A DNA stretch of 56,229 bases from Cyanophora paradoxa CCMP329 (lineage: Eukaryota; Plantae; Glaucophyta). Below are positions 2,662 to 35,980 of the stretch, in pieces. Numbering within the stretch: the stretch's first letter is position 1; each line of letters starts with the position of its first letter. The notes below the pieces were generated by a model. That model was not told the origin of the DNA and searched no databases. It was given only the letters and a program-made list of their open reading frames with translations. A program made the position numbers and the translations under genes. The stretch covers positions 1 through 56,229 of the forward strand of contig QPMI01000330.1 in NCBI GenBank assembly GCA_004431415.1. The letters run 5' to 3'.

Positions 2662-3889
2662 TCAGCCGGCGGCGACGCCGTCGACGAGGGAGGCGATGAT
2701 GCCGTTGGGGCCGACGGCGGAGGCGCCCGGCGGGTCGATCTCGATGCAGCTCAGGTGCGAGATCTTCTTGTAGTTGACGCAGAGGAGCGGGTTGTCGGGC
2801 TCCAGGCGCCGCGCCCGCTCGAAGTCCTCGGCCGCCTCCTCGTACTTGCCGAGCGACTTGAGCGCGAAGGCGCGGCGGAAGAGGGCGACGGCGCTCTTGG
2901 GCTCGGCCTCGATGACGGCGGTGAGGTCGCGTATGGCGGCCTCCTGCGAGCCGATGGCCTGGAGCGACTTGGCGCGCTCGTGGATGTAGGGCAGGTGCCC
3001 CGCCCGCCGCTGCACCGCCTGCGAGAAGGCGGGATCGCCAGCTCGTGGAGGCCCAGGATCGCGTAGGAGAGGCCCATGTGGAAGAACCTGCGCGCCGGCG
3101 CCGCTCAGAGGAGGGCGCGGGGCGGGGGCGGGGGGGCGCAGGGAGCGCGCAGGTCGGCGAGGAGGGAGGGGTGGAGCCCGCGGGCGTCGGCTGCCTTGAA
3201 GTCGTCGATGGCCTTCCGGTGCTTCCCCCGCCGGAAGCGCGCCACGCCCCGGTAGTAGTACAGCCTGCGCCCCGCCCCACGCTCGGGGCCCCGGCGCCGA
3301 GCCGGGCGCTCGAGGCGCGTCGCACTTGGGGTCGTTGGGGCGGGCGGCGAGGGCGGCGGTGAGGTCCTTGCACGCCGGCTTGTACTGCGAGGGGGGTGGC
3401 TCGCGTCAGGGAGAAGGGGGCAAGGCGGGGCGGGGCGGGGGCGGGGCGGCGGGCGCCTGCTGGACGTCGAAGAAGCACTGGGCGCGGGCGAAGAGCAGCT
3501 CGACGTTGCCCGCCTCGTACCGCAGCGCCATCGTCTGCCCCGCCCCGCCCCCGTGAGCGCCGCGCGGCCGGCGGAGGGCGTGCGCCGCGGGCGGCCCCGC
3601 GCACCAGGTCCTCGATGGCCTCCGCGAACTGCGGCGGGGGGCCTGAGGGGCGGGGCGAGGGGGCGGGGCGGGGCGGGACGGGCGGACGTGGCCGAGGGAG
3701 CGGCGGGCGAGGGCGCGGACGTTGTAGATCTGCACGCTCTCCCCTGCGGGCAAAGGCTCGCGCCGGTGGCGGAGAGGGCGGAGGGGGCGAGCGGGGGCAC
3801 CGGAGGCGCCCCGAGCTCGATGACCTTGTCGAAGTCAGACTGCGCCTCTTTGAACTTGCCCGTCTGCGCCCCCGTCCGTCAGGGCCCAG

Positions 3890-3921
<32 letters not shown>

Positions 3922-6070
3922 CGGTGCGCGGCGCGCCTTGACGAAGGAGTGGCCGCGCTTGTAGTAGAGGGCGGCGATGTCGGAGCAGAGGTCGATGGCC
4001 GCCGTGAAGTCCCCGATCGCCTTCTCGTGCTCCCGCAGCTGCGCGCAGCCGAGGCTCCCAGCACGCTCGAGACCGAACAAGAAGGAGTCGAGGGCTTCTT
4101 TTTGGGGCGGCGGGGGCGGGGGGCGGGGGCGGGGGCGGGGGCGGGCCTCCTGGTAGACGGTGCCGCGGGCCTCGTAGACGCGCCGGTCGCTGCGGTCCCG
4201 CGCCAGCAGGTCCGTGAAGCACTTCACCGCCTGCTGCCACTCCCCTGCCCCCGCCTCGCCTCGGCCCCTTCTCCCGCTCGCGGCGGGGCGGGGCGGAGCG
4301 GGGGCGGGCCCTGCTGGTGGCGGACGAGGCCGAGGTGGTAGAGCGACTGCGTGTGGTTCCCGTCCAGCTCTGAGGGGCCGTCAGCGGCGCGTGGCGGAGC
4401 TGAGGCGGCGGAGCGAGCTCGGCGCACCGAGGGCCCGCTTGAACTCCTCGACCGCCTCCCCGAGCCCTGCGCCGCGGGTCCGCCAGCTGAGGCGGGGCGG
4501 GGCGGGGCGGGGCGGGGCGGGGCGGGGCGGGCACGATTCATGGCGTGGAAGGTGAGGCCCTTGGAGTGGTGGAAGGAGGCCATGGCGCCCCCCAGGCGGA
4601 ACGCCCGGTCGAAGTCGTCCTGCGCCTCCTCGAAGTTGCGCGCCGCCAGGCACGCGTTGCCCCGGTTGAAGAGCACGTTCGCGTCGCTCGGGTCCAGCTT
4701 GATCGCCCGCGTGAAGTCCCCCTGAGCGCCCCGCGCTGTGAGGGGGGCGGGGGGGCGGGGCCGGGCGGGGCGGGCACGATGGCGTGGGTGAGCTCGTCGG
4801 CGCCGCCGAGGCGGTAGTAGGCGAGGCCGCGGTTGTTGTAGTAGAGGGGGGACCCCTCCTCGACCTCGATGGCCGCCGTGAACTGCGGGATCGCGTCCGC
4901 GTACCGCCCTACCCCCCCCTCGGTCGGCCTCGCCGCCGACGGGGTAGGATCCCGCGGCGGCGCACCCATGTCGAAGAGGGACAGGCCGAGGTTGTTGCGC
5001 GCCGCCGGGTTCCTGGCCCGGGGGTGAGGAGAGGGGGGGGGGGGAAGGGGGGTAGGGGCACTTGGGTGCGATGTTCGAGGCGTTCGTCAGGTCCTCGATC
5101 GACTCCCGCAGGCGCCCCAGCTGCCGCCCGCCGGCGCCGTCGTCGGTCGCCCCAGGCGGGCGGGCGGGGCGGGCGGGCGGGGCGGGGGACCTGGCGGAAG
5201 CAGATGCCGCGGTTGTAGTAGGGCTTGAACTTGTCGGTGGAGTGCTCGATGGCGGCGCCGTAGTCGGCGATGGCGCGCTCGACGTCGCCGAGGTCGAAGT
5301 GGGCGAGGGCGCGGTTGTAGTGGTAGGCCCCGTTCGTCCCCTCCAGCTCGATCGCCCGCGCGAAGTCCCGCAGCGCCTCGTGCAGGCTCCCCATCATCCG
5401 GCTGCAGTGGCCCCGGCAGTCTGCCCCGTCCCGCCCCGCCCCCTGAGAGCGCGCTCGGAGAGGCGGGCGGGGCCGGGGGCGGCACCGTAGTAGACGGCCA
5501 CGTCGGGCTCGTACTTGAGGGCCATCGTGTAGTCCACGAACGCCCGGTCGAACTCGCCCATCTTCCGGAAGCAGTGGCCCCGCGCCCCGTCTGCCCCACC
5601 CCCTCGCCCCCTCACCTCCCCGCCCCGCCCGGCGGCGCCGGCGGCTGCGGCAGCGGCGGGGGGCGCGGCGCACAGTACTTTGCGTGGTCGGGGCGGAGGG
5701 CGATCGCCTGCGTGTAGAGCTCCGCCGCCTTCGTGAACTCCTCCTGCGCCGCCGCGTCAGCGCCGCGGCCGCCGCCGCCGCCGCGGCGCGGGGGCCCGCC
5801 TTCTCGTAGGCGTCCTTGCCCCCGATGAAGGCGGCCTTGGCCTTGCCGTACCGGATGCGCTCCGCCTTCTTTCGCTCGTACTCCTGCGTCCCGGCGCCCC
5901 TTCTCGCCGGCACCGCAACCGCAGCGCGCGGCGGCGCTACGGTTGATCGAGCCGGGGGCGCTCACCCGCGGGCTGAACGGCACGAAGGCGCTCGTGGAGG
6001 CCTTGCGAGTCATCATCTTGTCCTCCACTTCAACAGCCAGCGAGCGCGGCGCGGATGCAGACTTCTGCAT
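2662..6070 (-). CDS. Long multi-TPR protein, many exons
   Basis: Repeated TPR helices across exons (AAELYTQAIALRPD, YHYNRALAHFDLGDVERAIADYGAAIE, YYNNRGLAYYRLG, LFNRGNACLAARNFEEAQDDFDRA, ALFRRAFALKSLGKYEEAAEDFERA). ATG at 6070 (MQKSASAP), TGA at 2662. Confidence 0.85.
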
Positions 6071-6649
6071 CTTGCCCCACACTCGAGCAACCGGTTGTGA
6101 GAGTCTCGTAGCTAGGGCTGCGGGTCGGGGCAAGTCAGGAGCAGCTGTGCGGCAGCTTTAGATGCAGGCGCGCGGCGCATCAGCAGACCGGCTAAGTTGA
6201 TTTGAGCTAATGTGCTGGGTGTGCGCCGTGAGCGGCAGGCGCAGAGAGCTCCTGCTAATCCACGCGCTGCTTTGTGTGGTCCGGCAGCGCGCGGCGACAC
6301 TGCACGAAACTTGAGGGGCCTAGAGCACCCTATACGAAGGTCGCCAGCCCCAGTTCCCGCACGGTCAACTCGTTTTGTGGTGTGCTCGTATACCCCCCTA
6401 GACGCCAAGAACCGAGATTGCATCACAGCGCTAGCCGCAATCCGTGGCCTCGTTTTGGAGACAGACAGAAAAGGCGAGCTAGGTCGTTCCCCGCGCGCAC
6501 GACCCGAACCCCTCAACGCGCCTAGATTTAGCGCCGCCGGCCTCGTAGCTAGCGCCCGCTCTGGAGTGCAAGGGTAAGCTACAGCGCCAGAAGCACTCGC
6601 TGAAAGTAGCAGAGAGCCCCATGCGCTCCAGTAGAAGGTAGCCCTCGCA

Positions 6650-9600
6650 ATGAGGAAGTCAACCAGCAGCTCGGTGGTCTCGGCCTCCGAGCTGCGCGCC
6701 TCGACTTCGGCAATGGGGCGGGAGCCGCTGGGGCGCCCCGCCACCAGCGCCACGGCGAGCACGCCAGCGTTGAGCCGGCCCGGCCTCGGGACGCCGGGCT
6801 CGTCGCAGCAGCCGCTGCCGCCGCTGTCGCGCAGCCGGACGGACCCGCAGCCCTTTATGGCGCCCCGCGCATCCACGGCGAACCTCAGCGCGATGCGGGA
6901 GAGCCACAGCGCCGTCAACTCCTTCAACCCGCCATCGCTGCCGATGTATCCAGTGGGCGCGCTGCTGGACTCGACGGAGAAGCTCTCGGCGCTCCTCCCA
7001 ACCGCGCGGCAAGGGTGCGCCTGCGCCGCTCCCCAGCCGGTGCACCCCACTCACACCGGCCGGGGCGGGGCAGGACGGCGGCGGCGGGACTGCTGGGGGC
7101 GCACAGCTGGGGCCAGGTCTTCAGCTCGAGCGCGGAGCTGCTGGACGTGGAGGGGCAGCTGCAGGGCTACGCGAACAGCCTGAACGCGATCCTGCGGCAG
7201 TGCAACGACGGGCAGGCCTTCGCGCGCCTCTGGACGGAGTACGTGCGGCTGCTCCACCAGCAGCAGGCCCTCCAGCTGCACGTCCTCGAGCAGTTCTTCC
7301 GCGCCGACCAGGAGCGCGCCCTCGAGGGCACCCTCCGCCGCATGCACGCCCAGATCGTCGCCGAGAAGGAGGCCGTCGCCGCCGAGGTCACCCGCGTCAA
7401 GCAGGAGGAGATCGACGCGCTGCAGGCCCAGTTCGAGGCCGAGATGCAGGCCCTCAAGCGCCGCCACGGGGCGGACCGCAAGGCCTCGGCGGCGGAGGCG
7501 GAGCGGCTGGCGCGGGAGAAGGCGGCGGCGGAGGAGGCGCGGGGCCGCGTCGAGCGCACGATCGACCAGTACCGGCGGGAGCTCGAGGCGGAGGCGGCGC
7601 AGCACCGCATCACGGGCGCCAAGCTCGCCGAGGCCGTCGACCGCGGCGACGAGATGCAGCGGTGCCGCCCCTCTCCGCCGCCCCCGCGCCCCGCCTCACC
7701 GCGCCGGCGCGCATCCGCAGCCTGGCGGAGACGTGGGAGAAGAAGCACGCCGTCAAGGGTGCGCGGCCCGGCGCGACTTGGCTGGGCGGGGCTGACTCGG
7801 GGCGGGGCGCAGAGGAGACGAACGCGCTGCTGCAGCGGGACCTGCTGGCGCTGCGGCAGAAGCTAAAGCAGAAGTCGGAGGCCGCCGACGAGTTCGAGCG
7901 CGACGCCAAGCGGGCGCGCCCCGCCCCGCCCCGCCCCGCCCCCGCGTTCGTCCGGGGCGGGGCTGAGGGCGGGGCGCGGGGCAGTACCGGGGGCAGGCGG
8001 AGGAGTTCGGGGCGCGGGTTCAGGAGCTGGAGGCGCGCTTCCAGGTGCAGCTGCGGGCCGTCGCCGAGCTCCAGGCCCGCCTCCGCTCCTACGAGAAGAT
8101 CATCGCCGACAAGGACGCCCGCGCGTGCGCCCCCGCCCCCGCCCCCCCCTCCTCCCCCGCTGCCGTGCTCAGGGGAGGGGGCGGCGGCAGGACGGAGATG
8201 CAGCGGGCGATCGACGAGGGGCAGACGGCGCTGGACGCGGAGCAGGCACGGGCGTCGACGCTGCGGCGGGACCTCGCCCTCAGCGAGGACGCCCTCGCCG
8301 CCGTCCGCTCCGAGTTCACCGCCCACCGCGCCCACGCCTCCGTCCGCCCCGCCCCGCCCCGCCCGCGCCGCCCCCGCCCGACGCCCAGAGCCCTGAGGCA
8401 CCCCCCCGCAGGAGACGGAGGCGGCGCTGCGGGCGCAGGAGCAGAAGCTCAAGGCCGAGCTCGCCGAGGCCGAGCGCCGTGCGCCCGCCCGCCCGCCCCC
8501 CCGGTGCCGCGCGGCGCCGCTGAGGGGCGGGGGCAGTGCTGGCGGAGCTGAAGGCGCGGCTGCGGGTAGCGGAGGCGGCGGTGTCGGAGAAGGGGGCGGA
8601 GCTGCAGCGGGCGCTGGGGGACGAGCGGCGGCGGCAGGAGGAGGAGCGCGCCGGCTTCGAGCTCGAGATCCGCGAGCTCCGCACCCGCGTCGCCGCCGCC
8701 GAGGCCCGCCGCCCCCGCCTCGTCTCCCCCGCCCGCCGCCACCGGCCCGCTGAGGCGGCCCGCGGCGCGGCGCTCCGCAGAGCAAGATCTCGGAGATGCA
8801 GATCGAGGCGCGCATGAACGGGGCGCAGATGAAGGCCCTCCAGTCCGCCCTCGCCGACGCCAACGTCCGCCCCGCCCCCGCCGCCCGCCGCCCCCCTTCC
8901 TCGCCGCCCCGCCCCGCCGAGGCGGCGGCCGCGCGCAGAAAAACCTGGAGCGGCTGCAGGAGGCGAAGGCGGCGGCGGACGCGGAGGCGCGGCGGCGGAT
9001 CGAGCGGCTGCAGGCCGAGCTGGAGGAGGCGCAGCGGGAGCTGCGGGAGCGGCGCGCCCGCGAGGCCGAGCTCCAGGCCCGCCTCGACGAGCTCACCTCC
9101 GGCACCACCGTCCGCCCGCCCGCCCCGCCCCGCCCCGCCCCGCCCGAGAGGCTGCGCGACGGAGCGGGGGCGTGTGCGGGGCGCAGGGGCTGGCGGCGCA
9201 GCTGGAGGATGCGAAGCGGGCGCTGGGGGAGGAGCGGGCGGAGGCGGGGCGGCTGCGGGGCGAAGAGGCGCGCCTCCGCGACGAGCTCGCTGCCGCCCTC
9301 GCCGAGGTCGAGCGCATCAAGTGCGCCGGCCCCTCCGCACCGCCGCCCGCCTCGGGCGCTCACGGGGCGCGGCGCAGGATGTCGCTCGCGGTGTACCTGG
9401 AGGAGTACAACGCCGTCAAGCGGGCGCGGGACGACCTCGAGGCGGAGAAGCGGCTGCTGGAGGAGCGCGCGGCGCTGCTCAAGGCCGACGGCGAGCGGCG
9501 TGTGCAGGAGGTGACGCGCGAGTGGCGCACGCGGGCCGAGGCGCTGGACGAGGAGTGGCGCGGCAAGTACACGAGCGAGCGGCGCGAGGCGGCCGAGGCG

Positions 9601-12600
9601 CGGGAGAAGTGCGCGAGGGCGGAGAAGGAGCGCGACGCCGCCGCTGCGGAGGCGCGCGAGGCCAACGCCGCCCGCGACGCCTTCGCCGTGCAGCTCTCCG
9701 TGCGGCCGAGCCCGCCCGCCCGCCGCCGCTCTCGGGTGGAGCGGGGGCGGCGGCTGAGGGGGCGGGCGCGTGCGGCAGGCGACGGAGCAGCGGGTGCGGG
9801 CGCTGGAGGCGGAGAACGCGGAGCTGCGGCAGCAGCTGGAGCAGGCGCTGCTGCGGGCGGCGCAGCTCGAGGGCGTCATGGCCGAGCTGCGCCCACTGCA
9901 GCTCGCCCTCGAGGAGCGCGACGAGGAGCTCCGCGCCCTCCGCTCCCGCCTCTCCGACGCCGACCTCCTCGCCGAGCTCCAGGCCCGCCCCCGCCCCCGC
10001 CCCCCTGCCGGCCCCCCCTGCTCGAGGCGAGGCGGGGCGGGGGCGCAGAAAGCGCTGGCGGCGGAGCGGGAGGTCGTGGAGGAGCTGCAGCGCGAGCTCG
10101 CCGCGGCGCGCGCCGCCCTCGCCGCCGTCCCCGGCGACTCCGTCAGCGGCGCCGAGGCGGAGGCCCTCCAGCGGTACTCCCCTCCCGCGTCTGCCCCCCG
10201 CGTGCGGCGGGCCTGAGGGGGCGGCAGGCGGCTGCAGGAGCTGGAGGGCGAGGTGGGGCGCCTGCGGCCCGAGGCGGAGGGCCTGCGGGCGGAGGTGGAG
10301 GCGCTGCGGGGGGAGGCGGAGCGCGGGGCCGAGGCGGCGCGGGCGCTGGCGGAGGCGCTGGCGGAGGTGGAGAAGCTGCGCCTCGCGCTGGCGCTGGCGC
10401 TGCAGAAGAGCGCGGAGATGGAGGGGACGATCGACGAGGCCCGCGACGCCGTCGAGGCCAAGCGGCGCGCCGAGGAGGAGGCGCGCCGCCTCTCCGAGCA
10501 GGCGGCCGCGCTCAACGCGGAGCTCGCCGCCGCCCTGGCCCGCGCCGCCGCGCTGCGGGCCCTCGCCGAGCGCGAGGCGCCGGTGCCGCGCTCCCTCTTC
10601 CACCAGCTCGCCGACCAGCACCTCAAGAAGAGCGGGGTGACCCTCTCCAAGAAGGCCGTCCTCAAGCTCATCGCGCAGACGTACGTCGACAAGATGAAGG
10701 CGGACGCGGTGGACGACCGGTGCGGCGGGGCGCGGGCGGGGTTCGACGCGGTGCTGGAGCGCTGAGGTGGCTGGGGCGGGCGGGGGCGCAGGGAGGTGCA
10801 CCGGCGGCAGGACCTGCACGAGTTCGTGATGGACGCCTTCCTCTTCCGCTACGGCGTCAAGGAGAAGGCCGAGGAGAAGCTCGTCCGCCCCCGCCCGCCC
10901 CGCGGCCCTTCCCGTCCGCCCGCTGAAGATGCGGCGGCCGGCGCAGGCGGAGCTGCTGTGCGCGGCGCGGGAGTACGCGGCCGAGTGCCCGCGCATCCGC
11001 GCCTTCGCCTCCTTCCTCGGCCTCACCGACACCAAGGCCCGCCCCGCCCCGCCCCTCCCCGCCCCGCCCCCGCCCCCTCGCGCGCCCGTCCGAGCCGGGG
11101 CGGCCGCAGCGCTCGCCGGACGCGCTGGACGCGTACCTCCTCGCCGTCGGCTGTCTGCAGGCTCGCTCGCCCCTTCGCGCGCCCTCTGCGCTCTCCTGCC
11201 CTCTGAGAGGGGCGGGGCGGGGGCGCTGCAGGGCCTGATCGGGGGCGGGGCGCCGCTCTTCTCGGAGGGGAACTGGGAGGCGGGGGACGCCAACGGCGCC
11301 GTCCTCGTCCCCGCCCAGGCGCGCCGGCCCGCCCCGGGCCCCGCCCCAGGCGCCCCCGCTGAGAGCGCCTCGGGCAGATGGCGGTGGAGGGCCTGCCGGG
11401 GGCCCTCTTCCCCGGGATGGTCCCCGAGCACCGCGCCGAGCTCGCCGCCCGCATCCGCGACGCAGCGGCGCGCCCCGCCGCCGCCTCCTTTCGGGGCGCC
11501 CCTCTGAACTGCGGGGCAGGTGGAGTCGGGGAAGGCGCCGAAGAAGCGGACGACCGTCGACCTCGACGAGCTCCTCGAGATCGCCCTCCAGGCGCGCGCG
11601 GCCCCGCCCGCCCCCCGCCCCCTCCTTTCGACCCGTCTCGCAGGCGTGGCAGCTGGAGAGCGGGCGGGCGCAGGCGCGCCTCTACGCCCTCTTCACGAGC
11701 GCCGACCGCTCCCAGCGGGGCGTGATCACCCTCCAGGAGGCCCGCCCCGCCCGGCGCCCCGCCCCCAACCCCCGGCGCGAGGGGCCGGGGCTGAGGGGGC
11801 GGGGGCGCAGTTCGCGGGGGTCGTGAAGGCGGCGAACGGCGAGCTCTCCGACGGGGCGGTCCGCGCCGGCCCCGCCCCCCGCCCCCGCCGGGGGTGCAGC
11901 GTGCCCACGGGCGGGGGCGGGGGCGCGCAGGTCTCGTACATGTTCCGCGAGGCCCTGCTGCACCCGACCTGCACCCGCACCCGCGCCGAGCTCGTGCGCC
12001 CCGTGCCCCGCTCCCCTTCCCTCCACCCCATCTGGCTTGACGGCGGGCGGGGCGGGCGGGGCCTCGGGCAGGGCGTGACGGCGGACGCGTTCGCGTACGT
12101 GCTGGGGCGGCACCGCGCGCTCGCCGCCGGGGAGAAGCCGGCCCCGCCCGAGACCGTCGCCGCCTTCGTGCGCCCCCGCCCACGCCCCGCCCCCGCCCCC
12201 GCCGCGCCTCCTCCGAGGCGGCGCGCGTCAGACGGAGGCGAACTGGGCGCTGCTGGAGCGCTTCTACGGGGCGCAGCGGGGGGCGCTCTGGGAGCAGCTG
12301 CAGGCCGTCGTCGCCGCCGTCGCCCGCCTCGCCGACTCCCCGGCCGACGGCTCCGAGGCCGTCCGCCGCCTGCTGCGCCGCGTCGACGCGCTGCCCGACA
12401 CGCTCGCCGGGCGGCGCGGGACCTTCGAGGCGGCCGCCGAGGCCCACCGCCAGCTCCTCGCCGACCTCAACGCCTGCCTCTTCCGCCTCCTCGCCGCCGG
12501 CGGCCCCGCCCCGCCCCTCGAGCGCGGCGCCGCCGGCGGCCTGGGGCCCCTCGCGCCGCCCACCGCCGCCCTCGAGTCCTTCGTCCCCGCGGAGGCTCGG

Positions 12601-12951
12601 CCGCCGACCCCCCGCCCCTCGCCTCGCCCTACATCTCCGTCGGCTCCGCCTCCCGCGGTCTCTCCCCGACGCAGAGCGCGGCGGGGCGCCCAGCCCGCCC
12701 CCTCCATCCCCTCCCTCGTCGTCCCCACGGGCTCGGGTCCCGCCGGCCCCGGCAGCGCCCGCGCCCCCTCCTCCCGGGGCCTCGAGGGCGCGGCGCCCCT
12801 CAGCGCCCGCCGCCAGAGCCTCGCCCCCGCCAGCGGCCCCCTCCCCTCCAGCTCCGGCCGTCGCCCGAGCCTCTCGGGCCCCCCCACGCCGGCCGGGGCC
12901 CCCCCCGCACTGAACTCGGCGCGCCGCCCCAGCCTGGGAGGGACCGGCTGA
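6650..12951 (+). CDS. Giant coiled-coil protein with C-terminal helical/EF-hand-like region (probable flagellar/cytoskeletal)
   Basis: More than 20 short exons of E/R/A/L heptad sequence, followed by KAVLKLIAQTYVDKMKADAVDDR-EVHRRQDLHEFVMDAFLFRYGVKEKAEEKL...PRIRAFASFLGL and LFTSADRSQRGVITLQE (EF-hand-like). The last exon reads to TGA at 12949-12951. The start is tentative. Confidence 0.7.
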
Positions 12952-13070
12952 CCCCACTCACCTCCTCATATCTCTGTACCCTCCTCCTTTGTTTTCTGCT
13001 GAACATATGCATCGATCGATACCGGCATCGGGGTGCGTGCCGGGGCCGGCGGGTCGGAGGGGCGGGGGTG

Positions 13071-15174
13071 CTACTCGGGTGCGGGCGGGGCGCCGGAGTG
13101 GGAGGAGGCCCCCGGCGTCGGGGTCGGGGTCGGGGCCGGTGTGGTGCCGGCGCCCGAGGGGGCCGGGGAGGGGGCCGGCGTGGCGGGGGCCCCCTGCGAG
13201 GGAGTCGGCGTGGAGGCGGTGGCGGAGGGGGCGCGCCCGTGCAGCCGGTTCAGCGCCGCCTCCGCGCTCCAGTCGACCCAGTACCTGCCCCCTCCCAGCT
13301 CGCCCCGAGGAGCGCGCAGCGGGGCGGGGCGGGGCGGGGCGGGGCGGGGGGGGACCGGTGGCCGAGGCGGGCCTCGCGCGTCGTGTACTCCTCGACGACG
13401 TCCTGGTAGGCCCGCGAGGCGGCGTAGGCGGCCACGGGGGCCGTCAGCGGGGCCAGCATCTCCTGGGGCACCCAGGGGACGCTGTCCCGCGTCACGGGGT
13501 CCACCACGAGGCCCGCCGCCACCGCGTACGAGACCGCCGCCAGGCCCCGCTCCGCAACGTCCCCGCTGCCCCCGCCCCGCCCTCAGCGGGGTCGGGCGGG
13601 GCGGGAGGGCGGGGTTCAGGGGCGGACGCGAGGTCCTTGGTGAGGGTGAGGAAGAAGCCCTGGTAGTCGGGGTTCAGGAAGAAGGAGCCCGTCGAGTGCC
13701 ACATCAGCTGCACCCCGGCCCCCCAGCCCCGTCAGCACCCATACCCCGTGCACTCGTAGCCCTGGGTTGCTTTGCTTAGACGCCGGCGCTGCATCGGTGC
13801 CCTATCCATGGATCTTGAAGCTTCGAGGGCGCGCGGCTGGCGCTCCGAGCGGCGCGCACGACTCCCCCCCCCCCCCCCCCCCCCTATCCCCCTCTCCTCC
13901 GGGGGGAGGAGCGCAAGGCGCGCACCGCGTTGTGGTAGTGCTCGGGCACGTTGAGGAGGGCGTCCCGCTGCGGGGCACGGGGGGCCGACTTCGGGGTACG
14001 CGGAACGCGAGGGGGTACGGGGGACGCACGCCGTGCTCGGCGGCGACCTCGCCGAGGAGGCGGCAGAACTCCTTCACGACGCCCAGCCCGGGGTGCTTCT
14101 GCCCTGCCCCCGCCCCGCCTCAGGGGTGCGGAGGGCGGCGAGCGGGGGGTGCGGGGCGGGCCTGGGAGGCGGGGTTTCTGCTCGCAGAACTGCGCGCGCG
14201 GGTTCTGCAGGCAGAGCCACTCGATCGCCGTCACCTGCCGCCCCGCCCAACTCGCGCGCGGCGAGAGCGAGAGCCCACGGCCGCGCCGGCGGCACAAAGT
14301 TCCGGGCACCTTGATCGGGGTCGGCAGCGTCTCCATGACGACGTGCGCGACCTGCTTCTGCCGCGCGTCCTCGTGCGGCCCTGCCCCGCCCCCTCCCGGT
14401 GGGCGCCTGCCGGCTCCCCGGGGCGGAGCCGGCCGGGCGCGGTCGCACCCTGGCCGTCCTGGTTGTATGCCTTGAAGTCCGGCAGGCTGCAGATCACTGT
14501 GCATCCGCGCCGCCGCCGGCTCGTCAGCTGCTGGAGCGGGGCGAGACGCCGGGCGGCGGGGCGAGGCGCACTCCGCCTCGCGATGAGGTCGATGAGGACG
14601 TTCTCCTCCTTCGCCTCCTTGTCGTAGACCTGCGCGGCGCTCGGCACGGAAAAGACTCTTCCGCCGCGGCGCGGCCCGCGCCTTCAGTCTATGTACGAAG
14701 AAATCGCTGTCGTCTACGGCGCAGGAGAGGTCGTGGAATCCCATCTTGTGCAGTTTCTCGATAATCCCGTATTTCTGCTCGCAGAGGCGTGATTATTGGT
14801 CCTCGCACGAGCTTCCGCGGGGGGGGACCTTCAGGTACTGAATGGCGTCTGCGGGCGTGTACTGCGGAGCACGTCAGAGCCGCGACGGCGCCGGCCGGCT
14901 CGCCCAGCAGACCGTGTCGAGGAATTTGTGGGTGACGGAGCCGCCCCGCTCGCCGTTCGCGCTCGTCAGCCCGAAATCAGAGAGCAGGTCCGCGGCTGCG
15001 CTGCCTAAGCAAGGTGCTCGAGCGGCTGGGCCAAGCAAGCCTACCGTCCTCGTCGTCGAATGAGATAAGCGGCTTCGGGTCGTCGTGGTGGAACATCTCC
15101 TGCAGATACCGCAACTTCTTGCGGAACACGCCGCTGTCATCATCCTTGCCCTGAGCCTGCGCGCTTTGCGCCAT
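13071..15174 (-). CDS. Protein with bacterial-type domain (IEWLxLQNPR...RLPGQxHPGLG family)
   Basis: Spliced product contains KYGIIEKLHKMGFHDLSCAVDDSDFFVHRLK, AIEWLCLQNPRAQFCEQKPRLPGQKHPGLGVVKEF, LLNVPEHYHNA and FFLNPDYQGFFLTLTKDL. ATG at 15174, TAG at 13071. Confidence 0.7.
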
Positions 15175-15506: not shown

Positions 15507-16731
15507 ATGGCGAAGTCGCCGACCGAGATTATGAAGCTGCTGGTGCGCTCTTTACACCGCAGCCGGGCGCGCTTGCGTGTATCCATGCTCCTGCAGCTCA
15601 CTGCTGTACGCGCAGGCGGAGTACTTCTACGACGACGACTTCGCGCAGACGTTCGAGGTGCGCGTTGCGCCGTGTCGCTAGTTCATTGTTGGACGCCGCC
15701 ACTCCGCATACATCTTAGCTATGGCAGTAGAAGCCTCTTGAGGAGCGTGCGAATTCAACACCGCTCGTTTGGGCCGCGCATTTGCTGGCCAGGCGCTGAG
15801 TCCGCCGCTAACCATCGTTTGTCGCCGAGCCTAGAGAAGAGGACCTCCGGCATAAAGCATGCCGCGGCTGCTGACCGCTTGCCCCGGCCCTTCGACGACG
15901 CAGAACTTCGCAAAGGAGCATTGTCACATCTTCACAGGTCCGCATCGGACAGAAGAGACCGATTGCGTCCTCTGAGGTCCCGCTCGGCAGACGACGAGGA
16001 GAATAAGCTGGAGTACACCGATGTGTACAAGGTGCGCGCCTCGCTGTCGCCCACCTCTCCTCCGCGTCAACCCGACTCGGGGGGCCGGGAGCAGAAGTTC
16101 TGCGCTCTCTTCGAGAAGAAGTTGATGCAGTTCTGCGAGAGCCAGGGCATGTCTTCGGAAGAGTTCTACCGACTCTGCAATGAGGTGCGCCGCCGTGTGT
16201 GTGGGGTGTGTTTGGATGGCCTCGCTTCTTTTCCTTTCCTTCTCTCGTCCTCTGGAGAACCGTGATGCTAGCCGATCGGGGCAGGTCCAAAAGAACAAAG
16301 AGGGAACTGACGCGGCGGAATTCGCGTACACAATCCTCCGAATCCTCCTCGCCTCGTTTGAGTTCGAGGGTTTCATAACCCTGATGAGGGAGGCGAGGGA
16401 TATGGGCCCGAGCCTGCGGAGCGCTAAGGATAGCGAGGGCTTGTGACGGGCCCTAGGATGGTGCGACGGGCTCCTGGGCTCGCCCGCGCGCGAGGGCCAC
16501 GCCATCTGACCTCTCCGCGCGCGCAGGTCAGCTCCAAGAAGGTGGACGACGACGGCTGGTGGGGCCCCGCCCCGCCTTGCAGCGCTCCCTGCACGCCGCG
16601 CCTGCTCACCGGCGCGCGTCTCCTCCACCCTCGCCAGGTCCGAAAGCATGCTGCAGGTGCTCCTGGCGACCTCCGACTTCGACGTCTTCCTCGCCCTCAT
16701 GCGCGAGACCCGCGACGGCGCCACCCGATGA
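15507..16731 (+). CDS. BART (ARL2/ARL3-binding; ARL2BP/CFAP36-like) domain protein with two alternative 3' ends
   Basis: Exons 15507-15542, 15616-15657, 15904-15937, 15991-16031 and 16095-16184 give FAQTFENFAKEHCHIFTDDEENKLEYTDVYKKFCALFEKKLMQFCESQGMSSEEFYRLC. This continues into either 16285-16446 or 16527-16558 plus 16638-16731. Confidence 0.85.
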
Positions 16732-16971
16732 TCCACCCCTCCCCCCCGGGCCCTACCCCGAGCCCGCGCCTCTTCTCCCCTCTCCGCCAGCTTCGCCCCG
16801 TGCCCCGTCCTCTTTCGCGGCCCTTCTTCCACTCAAGGCGCCTCCCCCAGCCCTCTGGAGCTCCCCGATGCCACCCCTCGCCCCCCCTGCCCTCCCCGCC
16901 CCTCATCCGCAGGGATGAATGTGTTCCCTCTCTAAGCCTGAGCCAGAGTTATTTACCTAAGCCTCTCTGAG

Positions 16972-19255
16972 CTAGAGGAGCGGGGCGTTGCCGAGGAGCT
17001 GCTGGAGAGCCCCCACGAGGATCGCCTTCTCGCCCTCCACGACCACCCCCGCCATCCGCCCCCGCACGCCGGCCTCGGGGCCCTCGCCCGGGGCCCCCTC
17101 CAGCGTGTACTGCTTCAGGCGCGCTGCCAGCCCGCCCGCCCGCGTCGGGCCGCGGCAGGGCGCCGGGGGCCGGCGCGGACCGGCGAGGACGATGGAGAGG
17201 GCCTGCCGCACGCGCGCCTCGCTCGCGGCGTCCAGCGCGCCGCCCTGCGCCGGCCTGAGGCCTAGGCCGGCGCAGGGCGGGATGGGCTGCCGGGCACCTT
17301 GAGGCGCTTCTCGAGGGCGGCGACGGCGTCGGCGGACTGGGCGGTCGCGAGCGCTGCGAAGCGGGCGAGGTTCGCCGGCAGGGGCCCCGCCCGCAGCTCG
17401 AACAGGCCCGTCAGCTGCCGCGCATCGAACTCTGAGCGGCCGCCGGGCCCCGCGGCGCAAGAGGGAGCGCGCGCCTGCTTGGCGTCCGCGTCGCGCAGGC
17501 ACGCCTTCGCCGCCTTGAGCTTGGCGTCGCGGAGCGGGTCCGCCTGCGCCCCAGCGCGCCGCGTCGTGCGCATTCCCTCGAAGAAGAAGCTGTACCCCCG
17601 GAACGGGGGGAGAGGGCGCACGGCGCGGATGCCGAGCTTAACCTCCACCAAGTCGTGCGAGTTCCCCTCGATCGCGAAGCCGCACTCTGCGCGCCCGTCC
17701 CCGTGAGGCGTGCCACGGTGCGGGAGCCGGGGCCGGCCGGCCCGGCCGCACCGACGAGAAGGTGGGCGTTCGGGTGGGCCCCGTAGAAAGCCATCGCCTG
17801 CGGGGCGCGGCGGGGCGCTCAGAGGTCTGGGCGGGCGCCGGGCCGACCGGGCGGCCGCTCGCCTGCTGCGCCGGCGTGAGGTCCCTCGCCGCGCGGACGA
17901 CCAGGTCGCCCGAGCCTTCCTGCGCGCCCGCCCGCCGCCGCCTCAGCCGCGCCGTGAAGCCGAAGAGCGGGGGCGGGGGGCAGCTGCGGGCGGGCCTCGA
18001 ATCCCCAGGAGACGTTGGGGCCGGGGGCCCGCGCCTCGTGGTTCAGCAGGTCGCCCCCGGGCACCATCACCTGCGCGGAGGTTCGAGGCGGGGCCGGGGG
18101 CGCGCGCCAAATCATCATCACCCACCATTTCGGGGAGGCCCGACCTGCCGCGGCGGCCGCGTGCGTGAGGGCGCGCGCGAGGCGCGAGCGCCTGCCGGGA
18201 GCGCTACCGCGACTCCCGCCCGAAGCAGCGGGACGAAACGGCGTTCAGGGCCCACGCGAGCCGCGCCGGCGTGAACCAGTCCCTCGGGAACGGCCCCGCT
18301 CCCTTGCGCAGCGCCTGCGGCGCCCGGCGGCCACCGTCAGCTGCGGGCCGATCCGCTGGGGCGCTGGCGGGCGGCGCGGGCGCCTGCGATATGTGCTTGT
18401 GCAGCGTCCCGTACAACGCCTTTGCGTCTTGAGCTCGCTGGAGTGCACGGGAGCCCTGCAGCGCTAGCGCCTCAGCAGGGGCGAGCTTCGAGAGTTGGCA
18501 GGGAACGGGCCGGAGGCGCACCCGCAGCATCTCCAGCTCCGCGTCGCTCCAGTGGCACGGAAAATCGTCGAACGCGTCGTACGGGATGCCGCTGCGGACG
18601 CAAGCCGGCGCCGTGAGTGCTCGAGGGGGCACAGGGCCGCGCGCGGCGCACACGAGGTAGGGCCCCCAGAGGGTGGCGGCATAGGAGCCGGCGCTCTCGG
18701 CGCGCAGGCGGTGGAGTAGTATGAAGAGCGCCGTGCTGACGTGCTCGACAAAGTGGTCATAGGGTAGCTCCTCGAAGAGGCCCTGAAGCGAGAGAGACTC
18801 GATGAACGCCCACAGCTCCCGGTCCGCACTCACTTTTTCCATGTCGATCAGGTACGCTTCCGGTACCCGCGCCTGCCCGCGCGTCCGATCACGATCAGCG
18901 GAGCTGGACGAGTAGACCGGGGCGCGCGCGTCGGTTTTACACGTACCACTTCAGCGCCGCGCTTGAGCACTCGCCGAGGCTTCATTCCTCGCAGGCCTTC
19001 GAACTCCGCGAGCTCGATTTCCCACCGCCGCGCGGCGCTGAGCTCCCGGAGCAGATGCAGCGCAGCTTGCTGCGGGTCCAGCGCGGTCGGAGCGGCAGAG
19101 GCGGCGACCTCGAACCGAGGTCTGGGGCGCTGACTGGAGCGCTCGCCGTGGGGGATCAGCGGCCGCAGGCCGTGGCGGCTGAGATCCGGTGCTTGCCGAG
19201 CGCCGAGGAATGCGCCCGGTCGGACCGGCGATCCGGGGCAGCAGAAAGCTTGCAT
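16972..19255 (-). CDS. Plastid-targeted SET-domain protein lysine methyltransferase (Rubisco LSMT/SETD3-like)
   Basis: MQAF... transit peptide. SET motifs GLRGM, LWGPYL, FPCHWSDAELEML, AWALNAVSSRCF, MVPGGDLLNHE, FYGAHPNAHLL..CGF, followed by an LSMT substrate-binding-like C-terminus. Confidence 0.85.
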
Positions 19256-19342: not shown

Positions 19343-22124
19343 ATGGCCGACGTCGAGGATGTGGCCGCCCTACAGCGGCGCATCCTCAGCAGCGAGGATC
19401 TTTACGACATCCTCGGCGTCCCGCAGCGCGCCGCTCAGCCGGACATAGCAAAGCGCTACAAGCGCCTCTGCCTTCTATTCCACCCCGTGCGCTGACTTGC
19501 TCAGTGCAGTAACGCGCCGCCCAACCAACCCGCGCCGCGCAGGACAAGAACAGGGCCGAGCACGCCGAGGAAGCGTTCAAAAAGATTGGCAAGGGTGCGC
19601 GACGCGCGGTTTGCCCACGCAGCAACTGGATTGAAGATTGATCGTGCCCGCGCGTAGCTTACGAGACCCTGCGAGATCCCGCGTCGAGAAGCCTGTACGA
19701 TGCAACCCACGCGAACGGGCTCTTCCGGCACCCCACCTCCTACACCAGCTATCCCTCGTACCAGCCGTCGTGGGCAGCTCCGCAGCGGCCTCCACAGCCT
19801 GCCCAGACTCAGTGGCAGAAAGCGCGGCAGCCGCCGCCGGCGCCCCCGCGAAGCCAGCCGACACGACCTGGGCCCGCGCCGCAGCCGCCGCGATCTGCAC
19901 CGCAGCCCACTCGGCCGCAGCCAACGAAAGCCAAGCCGACAGGGCCGCCTCCGGTGCCCCCGCCGCCAACAGCCCTGCGAAGCGAGTTCACGGCCAACTA
20001 CGTCCTGCCGCCCGTCGTGCGATGCCCTTCAGCGCAGTGCGCGAAGGAGTTTCCTCCGTCGGACTACTACACGCACTGCCCGAACTGCCGGATATACGTC
20101 TTCGCCGGCATCTGGAAGGGCTCGGTCGCCGCCCAGGCGGCGCAGGGGACCTCTTCCACCACCTCCTCCTCCAGCTCCTCCAATCCGCACACGCGGACCA
20201 CCCCCAACTCTTCTTTTCCTTCCACTTCCGCCTCGGGCCCCCGCTCCGGCGCCTCGTCCTCCACCTCCTCCTCGAGCGCGCCCCAGACGCGGCCCGCAGG
20301 CCCCGCGAACGGCGCCGCGCCAAAGCCAGGCGGGGCTTCCTCGTCGGGTCCCGCCTCGCAGCCGGACTACCCGGTGACGGCGGACGGGGCGCCTGACTTC
20401 GAGGCGATGAAGGCGTCGCAGCTGAAGGCCTGGCTGGCGGAGCGCGGCGTCAGCGTAACCGACTGCATCGAGCGCTCGGACTTCGTCACCAAAGCCACCC
20501 GCGTCTGGCACACCCTCTCCTCCTCCGCCGCCGGCGACAAGCCCGCCGGTGGCTCGGCGCCTGACACGCCCCCGCCCGCCCCCTCTGGCCCCTCATTCGT
20601 CCCCCCCTCTAGCTCCTCCGGCGCTTCGTCATCCACCCAGCCCCCCAGCGAGCCGTCAGGGGCGGCACCGCCGGCAGACGCCGCGGAGACGCGCGGCGAG
20701 CCCTCAGGGCCGCCATCCTCCTCATCCGAGCCGGCCGCTGCGTCGAAGTCGGCCCCCTCGGAGACGGGGGCGCCCGACGCGGACGGGAGCGGGGCGCGGA
20801 AGCGGGGGCGGCGGGAGGCCGGGGCGGAGGCCCCTGAGGAGGCCACGATCGTGCCTGAGGATCTCGACGGGATAGACCCCGCGAACGTCGTCACGAGGGT
20901 GCGCCCCCCCGGGGGCTTGTCTGCCCTCCGCGCCGCCCCGCTTGAATTGACGTCCCTGCAGAGGCTGCGATCGCGGGACAGGCCGAGGGAGGTGGGGACG
21001 GTGGCCCCAAGGGAGCCGAGAGCGGCCCCCCGGGAGCCGGGGCCGGTGGGGAAGAAGCGGCAGAGCCGGTACATAGAAGTGACCTCCCTGGAGCCGGACA
21101 CGGACGACGAGGTCATCGAGGAGAAACCCCAGAAGAAGCGCTCCAGGCCCGCCGCCGCCGCCCCGCCTCCGAGGCGCGCCCCGCTCCTCTCACGCCCCCA
21201 TCTCCCCCCGCTCCCGCAGGCTCCCCTCCGGAGCGGCCTCGTCCTCGAGCACCCGGCGGAGGTGCGGCCCATCTTCCCCGCGATCCGTCGCGGTGGCGCC
21301 GGGGGCGAGCGTGGGGCGGGGCGCAGGCGGGCGGCGGAGAACGGGCGGCAGAAGCGGCGCAAGCGAGGCGGCGAGGCGGACGAGGTTGTCGTCGAGAGCG
21401 AGGAGGAGGAGGACGACGACGAGGTGCCCCGCGCCGCGCCGCGCGGGGCGGTGGGGCGGCGCCGGCGGCGCGCGCTGACTGCCCGCCCGCCCGCCCGCCC
21501 GCCGGCAGACCTACAACGTGGAGGCGATCATGGGCTGGAAGAAGGAGGGCGGAGCGACCTACATGCGTGTGCGCTGGGAGGGAGAAAAGTGGCGCCCGCG
21601 GGAGGAGTGGACGTGGGAGGAGCGCGCCTCCTTCATGCGGACCGCCGGCTCTGAGGTCCGCAAGCTGGTCAAGGAGGTGCGAGCGCGTGCGGCCGGGGCG
21701 GCCGGGGCGGGGCGGGGCGGGGCGGCCCCCTCCGACGCGCCCCGCAGTTCGAGGCGAAGTTCGTGACCCCCGAGCTGGCCCGCATCGAGCTCGACGAGAA
21801 CGGCGCCGTCGAACAGCGCGAGCTCGCAACCGGCACCTCCGCCGCCCCCGCCTCCCAGCGGCCCCGCGCCGCCGCCCAGACCACCCGCAACAGCCCCCGC
21901 GTCGCTCACAACCCCTTTTCCGCCGGCGGGGCGGCCGCGCGCGGTGCGGCGGGGGCGGCTCCGGCGGGAGAGGCGCAGGCGCGCTGGGCGCAGGCGAACC
22001 AGGCGGCGCGGATGAACGCGGGGCCGCGGGCGAGCGCCGCCAGCAGCAGCGGCTCCTCGACCGCCTCCCGGCGCCACATCGACGCCGTCTCCCCATCATA
22101 GAGATCGACGACGACGACGTCTAG
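19343..22124 (+). CDS. J-domain protein with Zn ribbon, SAP/HeH-like motif and chromo-like domain
   Basis: J-domain DLYDILGV...YKRLCLLFHP|DKNRAEHAEEAFKKIGKAYETLRDPASRSLYD (HPD split by an intron). Also CPSAQC...CPNC, MKASQLKAWLAERGVSVTDCIERSDFV, YNVEAIMGWKKEGGATYMRVRWEG...WTWE and a C-terminal IIEIDDDDV. Confidence 0.8.
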
Positions 22125-22464
22125 CTCCCCCCCCGCCCCCGCCCCCGCCCCTCACCCGAACACCCCTTGCCCGCCCTCCCGCCTTGCCCCCGAGTGCATC
22201 CCCCCCTCCCCCCCCCCCCCCCCCTTGCCCTCCCTCTCCACATCTTCTCCTTTTCCCCCGCCGCGGCGCCCTCCGACTTCTCAGTCATGCCTTGTCACGC
22301 TCACCAGGTCCCTCAATTTCGAGAATGCCCTGCGGCCCGCTGCGGCTCGAAGGCCCGCCGCGAGCAGGGTCGAGAATGCACGCTAGATGGAGAGAAACGT
22401 AATCAGACATGTACAAGCAAGCAGCGCACAAGAGTGGCAGGGGCTCGGCGGCGACCGCGCGGGG

Positions 22465-23365
22465 TCACGCGTCGCTGCAGTACTTCTCGAGCTTGTCGAA
22501 CTGCTCGGTCTGCTCGAGCCAGAGCAGGTATTCGTCGCTTGGCACTGTGCGCCGGCGCCGGCCCGCTCAGCTGCGGCCGGGCGCGCCAGGAGAAGCGCGT
22601 CGCAGTGGCGCACCGTACTGGTCCTCAGGGAACTGCTTGCCATTGTGTCCGTACCAGTACATCGCCAGGAAGAAGATGACATCCGTGAGGTACACCGCCA
22701 GGAAGGACTTGTACACGAACGGCACGACGACGTTGATCAGCGGGATCAACGCGAAGCTCCAGTTGATCGCCCAGCGCGCCTGGTGCGTCGGCCTCCGCGC
22801 CTGCGCGCGCAGACGTGAGGGGCGGCGGGCGTGGCTGTACGCGCGGGGCGGGGCGGGGCACCTGGACGGAGGGGATCACGAACATCCACATGGACCAGCC
22901 GCCCATGATGCCCCAGAAGGGGTCGCCCTTGAACTGCGGCACGAGCTCCGCCGCCAGGACGAACCCGAGCGCCGCCGTGATGATGGCCTGCACCCAGAAG
23001 ACCTTGTTCATCAGGTTGTCCTCCGCCGGGGGATAGAGCTTCCTCAGCGGCTTCGGCGGGTCGAGCTCCTGCTGCCCCGCCTGCTCGGCGGGCTGCTCTG
23101 GCGCCTGCTGCTCGGACTGCTTCTCGACGGCGAAAACCCGGAACGCGGCGGCCCGCGGGAACGCCTGGGCGAACGGAGAGAGTGCGACGGACTCGCCGAA
23201 GAACTGCCGGCGGCGTGGCGACGCGACGGCACCCGCGCGGGTGTCAGCGCGTGCGCACGAGGCCGTGGGTCGCGCGCTGCATCGGGCTGCTGTAGAAATT
23301 GGCTGGAGCGACGCCAGCACGCGGCCGGTCGGCACGGCGGGGCTCGCGAAGCTGGTTTGCCGCAT
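22465..23365 (-). CDS. RPH1: RESISTANCE TO PHYTOPHTHORA 1-like plastid membrane protein
   Basis: Transit peptide MRQTSFASP.... Spliced WMFVIPSVQARRPTHQARWAINWSFALIPLINVVVPFVYKSFLAVYLTDVIFFLAMYWY matches the recalled plant RPH1 core (IPxLRAR...ALNYLFLLVPLLNxxIPFFWKSFAxVWSADxxAFFAMY). Confidence 0.7.
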
Positions 23366-28445: not shown

Positions 28446-28689
28446 GGCGGAGAGGCCTCCGTCCCGTACCCCCCGCCCTGCCGCGCCGGTGCGCGGCTCC
28501 CCGCGCGGGCCCCGGCCCAGCCCCTCGCCTCCTGTAGATCGCTCTGTACAATCGCACGCCGTAATTTATAATATTAAGCGAGGGTCCCATGCGGCTAACG
28601 AGAAGTGGCGTGCGCGAATAAATTACTGTACATGTAATATCTTAGAGTTAAGGTGCACCGGAAGCGCGCGCGTGCGCATTGCACGCACG

Positions 28690-33061: not shown

Positions 33062-33272
33062 GTCAATCCCCGTGGCTAATTTGCAACAGGGGGAGTATGA
33101 GAAATCAAGCAAGTGCTATTCTGCACTGCGACAAAAGACTGGGTGCCAAAGAGGGGACAACTCGAGTCTGCGCTGAGGCTAGGCCTAGGCTATCACACAT
33201 AGTAGGAGGCCGAAGCCGAAAGACAGGTGCCTAAGGCGCTAGAGCAGACGAGAGAGGACCCGAAATGCCGCC
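33062..33272. repeat. Repeat B2 (211 bp), direct copy of 33401-33611
   Basis: GTCAATCCCCGTGG...GAAATGCCGCC occurs twice with a 339-bp offset. Confidence 0.95.
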
Positions 33273-33400
33273 GCGGTGGGCGGGTGGGAGAAAACAACCG
33301 CACGCCGACCGAGCCTAACGCGTCGGGCCGGGCGGGTACACGACTGACTGTCTAGTTTGCACCACGGGATTAACCTAAGAGAACTACACTTCTCTACCCA

Positions 33401-33611
33401 GTCAATCCCCGTGGCTAATTTGCAACAGGGGGAGTATGAGAAATCAAGCAAGTGCTATTCTGCACTGCGACAAAAGACTGGGTGCCAAAGAGGGGACAAC
33501 TCGAGTCTGCGCTGAGGCTAGGCCTAGGCTATCACACATAGTAGGAGGCCGAAGCCGAAAGACAGGTGCCTAAGGCGCTAGAGCAGACGAGAGAGGACCC
33601 GAAATGCCGCC
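33401..33611. repeat. Repeat B1 (211 bp)
   Basis: Same sequence as 33062-33272. Confidence 0.95.
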
Positions 33612-33949
33612 AAGGCGCGGCCGAAGGGCGCGCTGGCACCCAGGAGAGAAGGGAGCAGGGAAAGAAGAGAGGCCCGGAGGGCCGAAACAGAAGCGGGGAG
33701 CCCGACGGCGACCCGGTGGGAGCCGGGGTGCTGGCCTGCCGGCGCGAGGCCGGGGGCCAGCATGCCGCAGGGCGCGGACGGGGGGCCGGCGACCGCCTCC
33801 TAGCGCGGCAACCGACCCCCGCCGCCCCGTGAAGATCCGAATCGCAGGGAGCAGGGGCGCAGGGCCCGGAGGGCAAGCGCCGGCGGCGACGGGGGCGAGG
33901 CCCGGGCCCGGCCCCGGAGGCAGAGGGTCCAGGGCCGCTGTACATGTGA

Positions 33950-35686: not shown

Positions 35687-35909
35687 TGCGGTGGAGAAGG
35701 CGGGAGGGAGGGGCAGGCCCGGCCGCGGCCGAGGGCGGGCGCCGCACGGGGAGGAGGCCTGGGCCGGCGCCGGCAGTGTCGTGCCTGCTGTGCGCCCGCT
35801 GGCCTCTGCGCTCGAAGGTGAGGGCGCAGGAGAGGGCGCAGGCGGGGCGGGGGGCGGGAGCGTAGCCGGGCGGGGTGTAGATGGAGGAGGAGGGGTCGCC
35901 CCCCGCAGC

Positions 35910-35934
35910 AGAGAACTACACTTCTCTACCCAGT
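35910..35934. repeat. Truncated repeat A1 (25 bp), identical to 33378-33402
   Basis: AGAGAACTACACTTCTCTACCCAGT occurs at both positions. Confidence 0.9.
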
Positions 35935-35980
35935 ACCGTGCCTCCAGTCTGGCGCGCCCCCGGCTTAATCAGCTACCGGT

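Follow-up and report, generated by a model that had tools for sequence, protein, structure and literature searches.

Introns of the glaucophyte Cyanophora paradoxa CCMP329 tend to pass from C-rich to G-rich sequence along their length, and the exons between them pass in the mirror direction, from codons ending in G to codons ending in C. This pattern was characterized in a 56,229-nucleotide (nt) stretch of nuclear DNA (contig QPMI01000330.1, hereafter the window), and all counts given below rest on 13 curated genes with 135 introns. We propose that the alternating G and C blocks are a selected compositional mark of splice sites in GC-rich pre-mRNA that lacks polypyrimidine tracts, a proposal that we hold tentatively and rate as a little short of probable. 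An initial annotation, made from the DNA letters alone, had noticed C-then-G introns with mirrored exons on both strands, and the counts bear this out. The second half of the intron is the G-richer one in 102 of 135 cases (54/71 on the plus strand and 48/64 on the minus strand), and 82 of 96 exons shift from G-ending to C-ending codons. The fraction of such introns rises to 42/44 in the region 2900–12300, which spans a head-to-head pair of genes termed A and B (Table 1).

Composition of introns and exons

The introns have a median length of 66 nt and comprise 107 GT-AG and 28 GC-AG examples. Given these ends, a branch-like motif and joints observed in RNA, they are U2-type spliceosomal introns. 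The available text on the published C. paradoxa assembly gives 9.2 introns per gene, with a mean length of 86 base pairs (bp) (PMC6704402). Three sequencing runs were treated as RNA because their contigs, here called RNA-like, skip GT-AG intervals. Among the 43 introns that could be checked in this way, via joints or sums of skipped length, 32 run from C to G.

In genes A and B, the motif GCCCC occurs within the first 30 nt of 36/44 introns and GGGGC within the last 30 nt of 25/44, compared with 3/44 and 8/44 for the reversed placements (GCCCC last and GGGGC first, respectively). Among introns that lie late in their genes, 88% begin C-skewed and 61% end G-skewed. Thus, the C-rich start described in the initial annotation is a regular feature, but the G-rich end that it paired with this start is less constant. 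The turn from C to G falls close to the branch-like motif, ~22 nt upstream of the acceptor. A CTRAY-like sequence, which we take to be the branch-point pattern, is present in 49 of 83 late introns, ~17 nt before the intron end. The intron at 7914–7984 matches its first description (Table 1), and in silico it folds into one long hairpin.

Other splice signals are sparse in these introns. A pyrimidine tract (at least 8 pyrimidines in 10 positions) was found in 6 of the 44 introns of genes A and B and in 22 of the full set, in agreement with the tract-free introns first described. U makes up 10% of positions -20 to -4 across all 135 introns. The donor consensus, GTGCGC, is weak, and GC donors nearly always follow AG (G at position -1 in 26/28). 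GC-AG introns are very common (15/44 in 2900–12300 and 28/135 overall), and 23 of the 28 lie more than 800 nt from the ATG. GC content is 0.78 in introns and 0.71 in exons; in the accessible part of PMC6142364, C. paradoxa is the sole species of the data set with intron GC above exon GC. With weak donors, rare pyrimidine tracts and introns GC-richer than exons, the usual U-rich and AT-rich marks are lacking, and the blocks likely stand in for them.

Exons more than 800 nt from the ATG show the mirrored pattern most directly at four-fold degenerate codons, of which 309/392 end in G in the first 36 nt of the exon, compared with 57/406 in the last 36 nt. The shift has the same direction in 8/8 codon families. 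All 39 exons of genes A and B with at least 8 informative codons carry more G-ending codons in their first half, and a fit with one switch agrees with the codon endings at 90% or better in 21 of the 39, and perfectly in 9. The exon at 8191–8341, first described as having a G-ending and then a C-ending half, follows this division without exception (Table 1). Some amino-acid choices shift along with the codon endings, and the blocks reach ~50–100 nt into the exon through silent codon positions. Since exons run from G to C and introns from C to G, every donor therefore lies in a C block and most acceptors lie in a G block. Long exons switch between G and C internally, as the initial annotation had noted, although the exons concerned were found to extend over 7074–7661 and 45416–46693.

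Over the first 300–600 nt of genes the pattern is faint or missing, and it is weak in the introns of genes G6, G7, G12 and G15. Between intron halves, the skew differs by 0.00 for the 17 introns closest to the ATG (within 300 nt) and by 0.54 for the 21 introns more than 2.5 kilobases (kb) away, and the amplitude rises along genes (rho = 0.42; 0.26 after control for GC content). The COP9 signalosome subunit 3 gene (CSN3) exhibits this trend, with weak skew in early introns and stronger skew in late ones.

Departures from the usual polarity were also noted. In a DnaJ-like gene, the predicted introns 21424–21508 and 21677–21747, whose boundaries are model-based, run from G to C, and the exon after the second of these soon becomes C-rich. 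Another exceptional intron lies in the region of gene B (10720–10791, Table 1). Last exons become C-rich, most of them staying so past the stop codon (12600–13260, 16731–16972, 2447–2662 and 22101–22465), and convergent gene pairs consequently show a C-then-G flip on the plus strand. One contig extends from the end of gene A to position 2318, inside an opposite cyclin-like gene, which suggests overlapping 3' ends.

Splice sites as anchors of the pattern

Several results tie the blocks to splice sites. Of 71 late exons, 49 (42–234 nt long) were chosen because they change over once and cleanly, and in these the G-to-C switch lies further in the longer the exon is (slope 0.44, r = 0.66). The flip persists in exons no longer than 60 nt, where the G-ending fraction falls from 0.71 to 0.28. 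By segmentation, 3 of 102 G-to-C switches are located inside introns, compared with 55 of 100 C-to-G switches.

Gene G17 carries a threefold peptide repeat in which an intron occupies the same site in two copies (Table 1). Downstream of this site, codons are G-ending in 10/12 and 13/14 cases in the copies with the intron, compared with 5/12 in the copy without it (Fisher p = 0.005). The intron-less copy sits in exon 45416–46693 and shows no C-then-G flip. An intron position common to two repeats and absent from the third denotes that an intron was gained or lost once the repeats had duplicated.

Skew covaries across the acceptor (rho = 0.37–0.46, within-gene p = 0.0005) and weakly across the donor (rho = 0.28–0.33, within-gene p = 0.06). 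No covariation was detected between the two ends of the same intron (rho = 0.03, 85 late introns). The next exon begins C-rich after 10 of 25 introns with a C-rich end, compared with 4 of 52 with a G-rich end. Moreover, a logistic model given only the splice sites, and trained on other genes, places the spectral peak within 10 nt of that observed in 5 of 8 genes (230, 205, 210, 285 and 175 nt, compared with observed values of 230, 195, 200, 280 and 170 nt). Nothing is left at 200 nt in the residuals of this model (z = -0.8).

If the blocks are a splice-site mark, a C block at the donor and a G block at the acceptor would help the spliceosome to locate weak sites. Separation of G from C is predicted to weaken folding in the 40 nt surrounding the donor by ~3 kcal/mol and to place the branch point preferentially in a loop. 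In folding predictions, 40-nt windows fold more weakly than shuffles that keep both protein and composition at 63/78 donors (-10.6 vs -13.9 kcal/mol) and 52/78 acceptors, and the accessibility of the branch point is 0.59 compared with 0.51 in shuffles (p = 0.045, 19 introns, 120-nt pairing span). The fixed polarity of the blocks suggests sequence-specific readers. These would putatively be proteins that bind C at donors and proteins that bind G at acceptors, whose reading of the blocks would in turn fix the polarity. The hairpin formed by an intron might then be a by-product or a minor aid.

A more far-reaching version of this proposal seems doubtful to us, although conceivable. It holds that a mirror-image code of G and C blocks replaces both the polypyrimidine tract and the AT-rich intron mark. 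Gene bodies beyond ~600 nt would self-organise into domains of 100–200 nt that are read by the spliceosome, with walls pinned at branch points and exon midpoints, and splicing rather than translation would set most silent codon endings.

A number of observations weigh against a splice-site mark. A C-to-G switch was called in only 55 of 96 late introns, and decoy donors show no depletion relative to shuffles (13 vs 13.7). On the acceptor side of the same decoy comparison, intronic YAG triplets ahead of the acceptor number 12, compared with 20 in shuffles. The splice-site model misses the spectral peak in genes G4, G12 and G15, and power in excess of this model is present in gene A and CSN3 (p = 0.01 each) and in G15 (p = 0.04). 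The gain in splice-site accessibility vanishes with longer-range folding (0.31 vs 0.32 at the 5' site and 0.41 vs 0.41 at the 3' site for 34 introns, with the 120-nt span), and the folding gains at splice sites follow from composition by construction. G and C blocks also occur inside long exons, well away from the nearest splice site, which splice-site binding alone fails to explain. Furthermore, G- and C-ending codons are clustered in 10 of 11 long exons located farther than 600 nt from the ATG, whereas none of the 4 long exons within 400 nt of it, which are similar in GC content, shows such clustering. This distribution points to gene position or chromatin. Both the long-exon blocks and the weak 5' zone are left without explanation by a splicing mark.

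If the proposal of a splicing mark is true, it answers how splice sites are defined in a eukaryote that is dense in introns and has weak donors, scarce pyrimidine tracts and introns GC-richer than its exons. It would also be an unusually clean case of splicing dictating synonymous codons (~79% vs 14% G-ending). The code is directly testable because it can be rewritten without changing the protein, and it is relevant to gene prediction and transgene design in glaucophytes.

Chromatin, mutation and intron pairing

The initial annotation had predicted a period of 160–200 bp set by chromatin. Spectral power is indeed present near 200–230 nt, but it is largely reproduced by the splice-site model, and the peak is gene-dependent, varying from 135 to 285 nt. 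We consider it rather unlikely that gene-body chromatin is the cause, with nucleosomes, or 5-methylcytosine (5mC) from DNMT1 or DNMT3 beyond a 5' zone of N6-methyladenine (6mA), imposing a strand-symmetric C-then-G wave of ~200–230 bp. Introns would tend to occupy the C-to-G points of this wave, as first suggested, without the involvement of Dnmt5. Such symmetry is apparent in that the pattern is its own reverse complement, and the top-ranking 5-mers at one intron end are the exact reverse complements of those at the other. Peaks of 200–225 nt are observed in 4 of 8 genes. Compared with shuffled intron-exon units, power is significant in 2 of 8 genes, with a summed z of 3.85 at 205 nt (global p = 0.06), an excess that is overstated because unit shuffling breaks the continuity across donors; the 195–245-nt band was selected after seeing the data, as were the lags used for long exons below. 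Called C-to-G switches have a median spacing of 206 nt, and for introns separated by 135–170 nt, skew is anticorrelated (rho = -0.5, 21 pairs). The skew amplitude also climbs along genes, as 5mC reportedly does in expressed genes (PMC12344493).

Other results argue against a chromatin wave. The initial annotation had named a lack of periodicity in long intron-free exons as part of a refutation, and such a lack is largely what is observed, as nine long exons (888 codons) give a negative autocorrelation of -0.10 to -0.11 at 135–225 nt and a weak peak of +0.06 at 375 nt (p = 0.003–0.015 vs random-block nulls). Neighbouring introns lie less than 147 bp apart in 51 of 122 cases, so that short introns cannot each be centred on a nucleosome linker, as had been proposed, and intron positions exhibit no periodicity or phase coherence (p = 0.2–0.97). 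CpG is flat around 85 donors and acceptors (0.12–0.18 per nt, observed/expected 0.83–1.37), its autocorrelation has no peak, and its power in the band is at most ~2 times background over 2900–12300 and 4 times in gene A alone. Exons of 60 nt or less flip as well, the model residuals are empty at 200 nt, and A and T are not mirrored, with T exceeding A at both intron ends. Supplementary Table 1 of PMC12344493 lists for C. paradoxa 0 DNMT5, 2 DNMT1 and 1 DNMT3, and the accessible text places 5mC mainly on repeats and silent genes, as a repressive mark, and notes that it also increases somewhat toward the ends of genes that are expressed. With no DNMT5 listed, CpG unphased, close intron spacings and long exons lacking a period, the Dnmt5-type linker methylation originally put forward is unsupported.

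The 5' zone has a composition of its own. ApT declines from ~30 per kb in the first 600 nt to 8–13 per kb further in, and GC content increases from 0.67 to 0.79 (12 genes). The available portion of PMC12695648, in which C. paradoxa is among the species sampled, reports for species with AMT1 a peak of 6mA at ApT downstream of the start site. The weak 5' zone may therefore equal the 6mA domain.

A mutational footprint is, in our judgement, unlikely. A transcription- or splicing-coupled process (R-loops, G-quadruplexes, slippage or repair) would let G beget G and C beget C, with splice motifs only seeding the phase. For the GC skews at fungal gene ends, the accessible part of PMC3315797 offers two explanations, mutational pressure being one of them. 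In keeping with such a process, every codon family and some amino-acid choices shift, and blocks are present in long exons and missing near gene starts and in the reverse-transcriptase frame of a retroelement, where no clustering of G- and C-ending codons was detected (z = 1.6). A four-run C motif, corresponding to a G-quadruplex motif on the template strand, occurs in 37/85 late introns, and the sense motif occurs in 8/85. However, the near-perfect switching of many exons in genes A and B would be hard to reach by mutation bias alone, and we know of no process that inverts at exon midpoints. If chromatin or mutation is nevertheless the cause, the pattern would be a strong gene-body signature that can be tested on published nanopore methylation data for C. 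paradoxa.

It is improbable that each intron's C-rich start pairs with its G-rich end to form a stem that joins the splice sites and replaces U2AF65, as in zebrafish introns with (AC)m and (GT)n ends, for which the available text of PMC4691745 provides a precedent. The initial annotation had raised this idea, and it holds insofar as intron halves can pair. The paired fraction within introns is 0.40 compared with 0.28 in shuffles (33/46 introns), with pairing between intron and exon predicted to be lower. Introns also fold slightly better than full dinucleotide shuffles (mean z = -0.41, p = 0.0025, 128 introns), and they have few pyrimidine tracts. However, the pairing is only what composition dictates, as introns fold no more stably than shuffles in which the block composition is preserved (p = 0.7, 128 introns). 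The ends of an intron pair no better with each other than with foreign ends (-24.0 vs -24.1 kcal/mol, p = 0.58), and a C-rich start does not predict a G-rich end, although co-occurrence defined the zebrafish class in the part of PMC4691745 available. About 4 in 10 late introns are without a G-rich end, and a stem leaves the exon pattern unexplained.

An origin of these introns from introner elements was rejected, since the longest listed intron pairs are only 71–79% identical, in low-complexity runs.

Gene models, other features and known systems

Spliced gene models were prepared by dynamic programming and then curated, and models G13, G16 and G18, together with the uncertain G0 and G10, were excluded before counting. 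The gene finder is composition-based and yielded false introns in low-complexity coding sequence (three in the first exon of gene B and several in G7, G15 and G17), which were deleted on RNA evidence or by eye. For gene B, the predicted intron lengths equal the lengths skipped by spliced RNA-like contigs in 3/3 measurable intervals (663, 199 and 728 nt). Joints in RNA-like contigs cover 6 introns of G5, 9 of G15 and 4 of G17, and several model calls were corrected accordingly. In gene A, an RNA-like contig spans 2623–3086 and continues, and the intron joints are model-based. A CSN3 exon is 100% identical to the C. paradoxa protein in EukProt.

Gene B has the strongest intron skew of the window. 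Its protein appears coiled-coil-like by eye, and no Pfam match was obtained for the 2 exons scanned. Its true stop codon lies past 12600, beyond assembly indels. The long repeats of the G17 protein resemble what we take to be IQ motifs.

Table 1. Coordinates of the genes, exons and introns discussed, with the basis of each assignment
Feature	Position	Strand	Basis
Gene A, TPR-repeat protein, 19 short introns	2662–6070	-	Model; TPR Pfam match in 2/2 exons scanned
Gene B, long Glu/Ala/Arg-rich protein, 25 introns	6650–12600 (modelled)	+	Model and lengths skipped by RNA-like contigs
Long exon with blocks G 0–180, C 195–390, G 396–525, C 534–573	7074–7661	+	Segmentation; continuous in RNA-like contigs of 2 runs
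Type-example intron, 71 nt, GC-AG, (GCCCC)n start, CTGAG branch-like motif, G-rich end, no polypyrimidine tract	7914–7984	+	Model
Type-example exon, 16 G-ending then 16 C-ending four-fold codons, no exceptions	8191–8341	+	Codon count
Exceptional intron, G-rich throughout, upstream exon end G-ending (block crosses the donor)	10720–10791	+	Model
CSN3, 12 introns	26122–28446	+	Exact spliced mapping of the 464-aa EukProt protein
Gene G17, protein with E/K/A-rich helical stretch, C2 domain and three long repeats	43487–47622	+	Pfam
Exon of 1278 nt, C2 domain and repeats, internal G/C blocks	45416–46693	+	RNA-like flanking joints and inner pieces; Pfam C2
Threefold peptide repeat of G17, two copies with an intron at the same site (46694–46767, 47360–47430), third copy without	46108–47484	+	Both introns are RNA joints

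Several further observations concern the assembly and its other elements. Single bases are omitted from the assembly at 1627, 3030, 12607 and 12682, on which contigs of 3 or 4 runs concur, and further omissions at 3775, 3792, 3808 and 12697 are indicated by one run. Several of these omissions disrupt reading frames, and those at 3030 and 3808 fall in gene A. A 342-nt intron (16185–16526) is spliced in RNA and holds an apparent alternative last exon with its own stop codon (~16285–16446, by eye). The retroelement occupies 33062–35968. Its reverse-transcriptase frame (Pfam RVT_1) is read from the minus strand, and it carries two identical 211-nt direct repeats (33062 and 33401) and a 25-nt repeat at 33378 and 35910. 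These split repeats recall what we presume to be the arrangement of DIRS/Ngaro elements. Dispersed repeats at 50472–50771 and 52086–52385 (300 nt, 90% identity) and at 51679–51730 and 54096–54147 (52 nt, 94% identity) lie in a gene-poor stretch of lower GC content.

A scan of metagenomes for the intron-like pattern gave 2 matches, both of which appear by eye to be prokaryote-like chance matches. A literature search, which extended to neither subscription papers and figures nor most supplements, found no description of the pattern in Cyanophora. The pattern can be compared with five known systems.

The first is the internucleosomal CG methylation by Dnmt5 in prasinophytes and haptophytes, which Huff and Zilberman reportedly described in 2014 (as cited in PMC12344493 and PMC12695648). 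Codon use is reportedly reshaped in that system, as it is in Cyanophora. Cyanophora is likewise a GC-rich alga with a gene-body pattern that starts downstream of the 5' region and has a scale near 200 nt. It differs in that no DNMT5 is listed, CpG is not phased, the period is gene-dependent and follows the spacing of splice sites, and long exons are without a period.

The second comprises introns bridged by structure (AC/GT and GGG/CCC classes). As in these, complementary simple repeats lie at opposite intron ends and the polypyrimidine tract is weak. In Cyanophora, however, the polarity is the reverse of the human G-then-C class, the ends do not covary, and the signal extends into exon codons and affects most introns of a gene.

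The third is the introner elements that, according to Huff et al. 2016 (via the available text of PMC10228655), were inserted into linkers in Micromonas and Aureococcus. Both systems have numerous short introns whose ends look complementary. The Cyanophora introns differ in the limited, low-complexity identity of their pairs and in having no overall excess of boundary duplications (mean repeat 2.18 nt vs 2.13 nt expected, p = 0.13), yet 5 introns have boundary repeats of at least 7 nt, compared with 1.3 expected.

The remaining two are found in fungi. Zafrir and Tuller describe weak local folding around fungal donor, branch and acceptor sites in the accessible part of PMC4574748, and short windows at Cyanophora splice sites also fold more weakly than randomised controls. 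The fungal effect goes with low GC content, whereas that of Cyanophora goes with the segregation of G from C at 80–87% GC. Unicellular fungi also have opposite GC skews at gene ends, with C at the 5' end and G at the 3' end, for which the choice between mutation and selection is left unsettled in the text available (PMC3315797). As in Cyanophora, this position-dependent skew reaches four-fold sites and amino-acid choice. In contrast with the single cycle per gene of these fungi, Cyanophora completes one cycle per exon-intron unit, and its last exons end C-rich.

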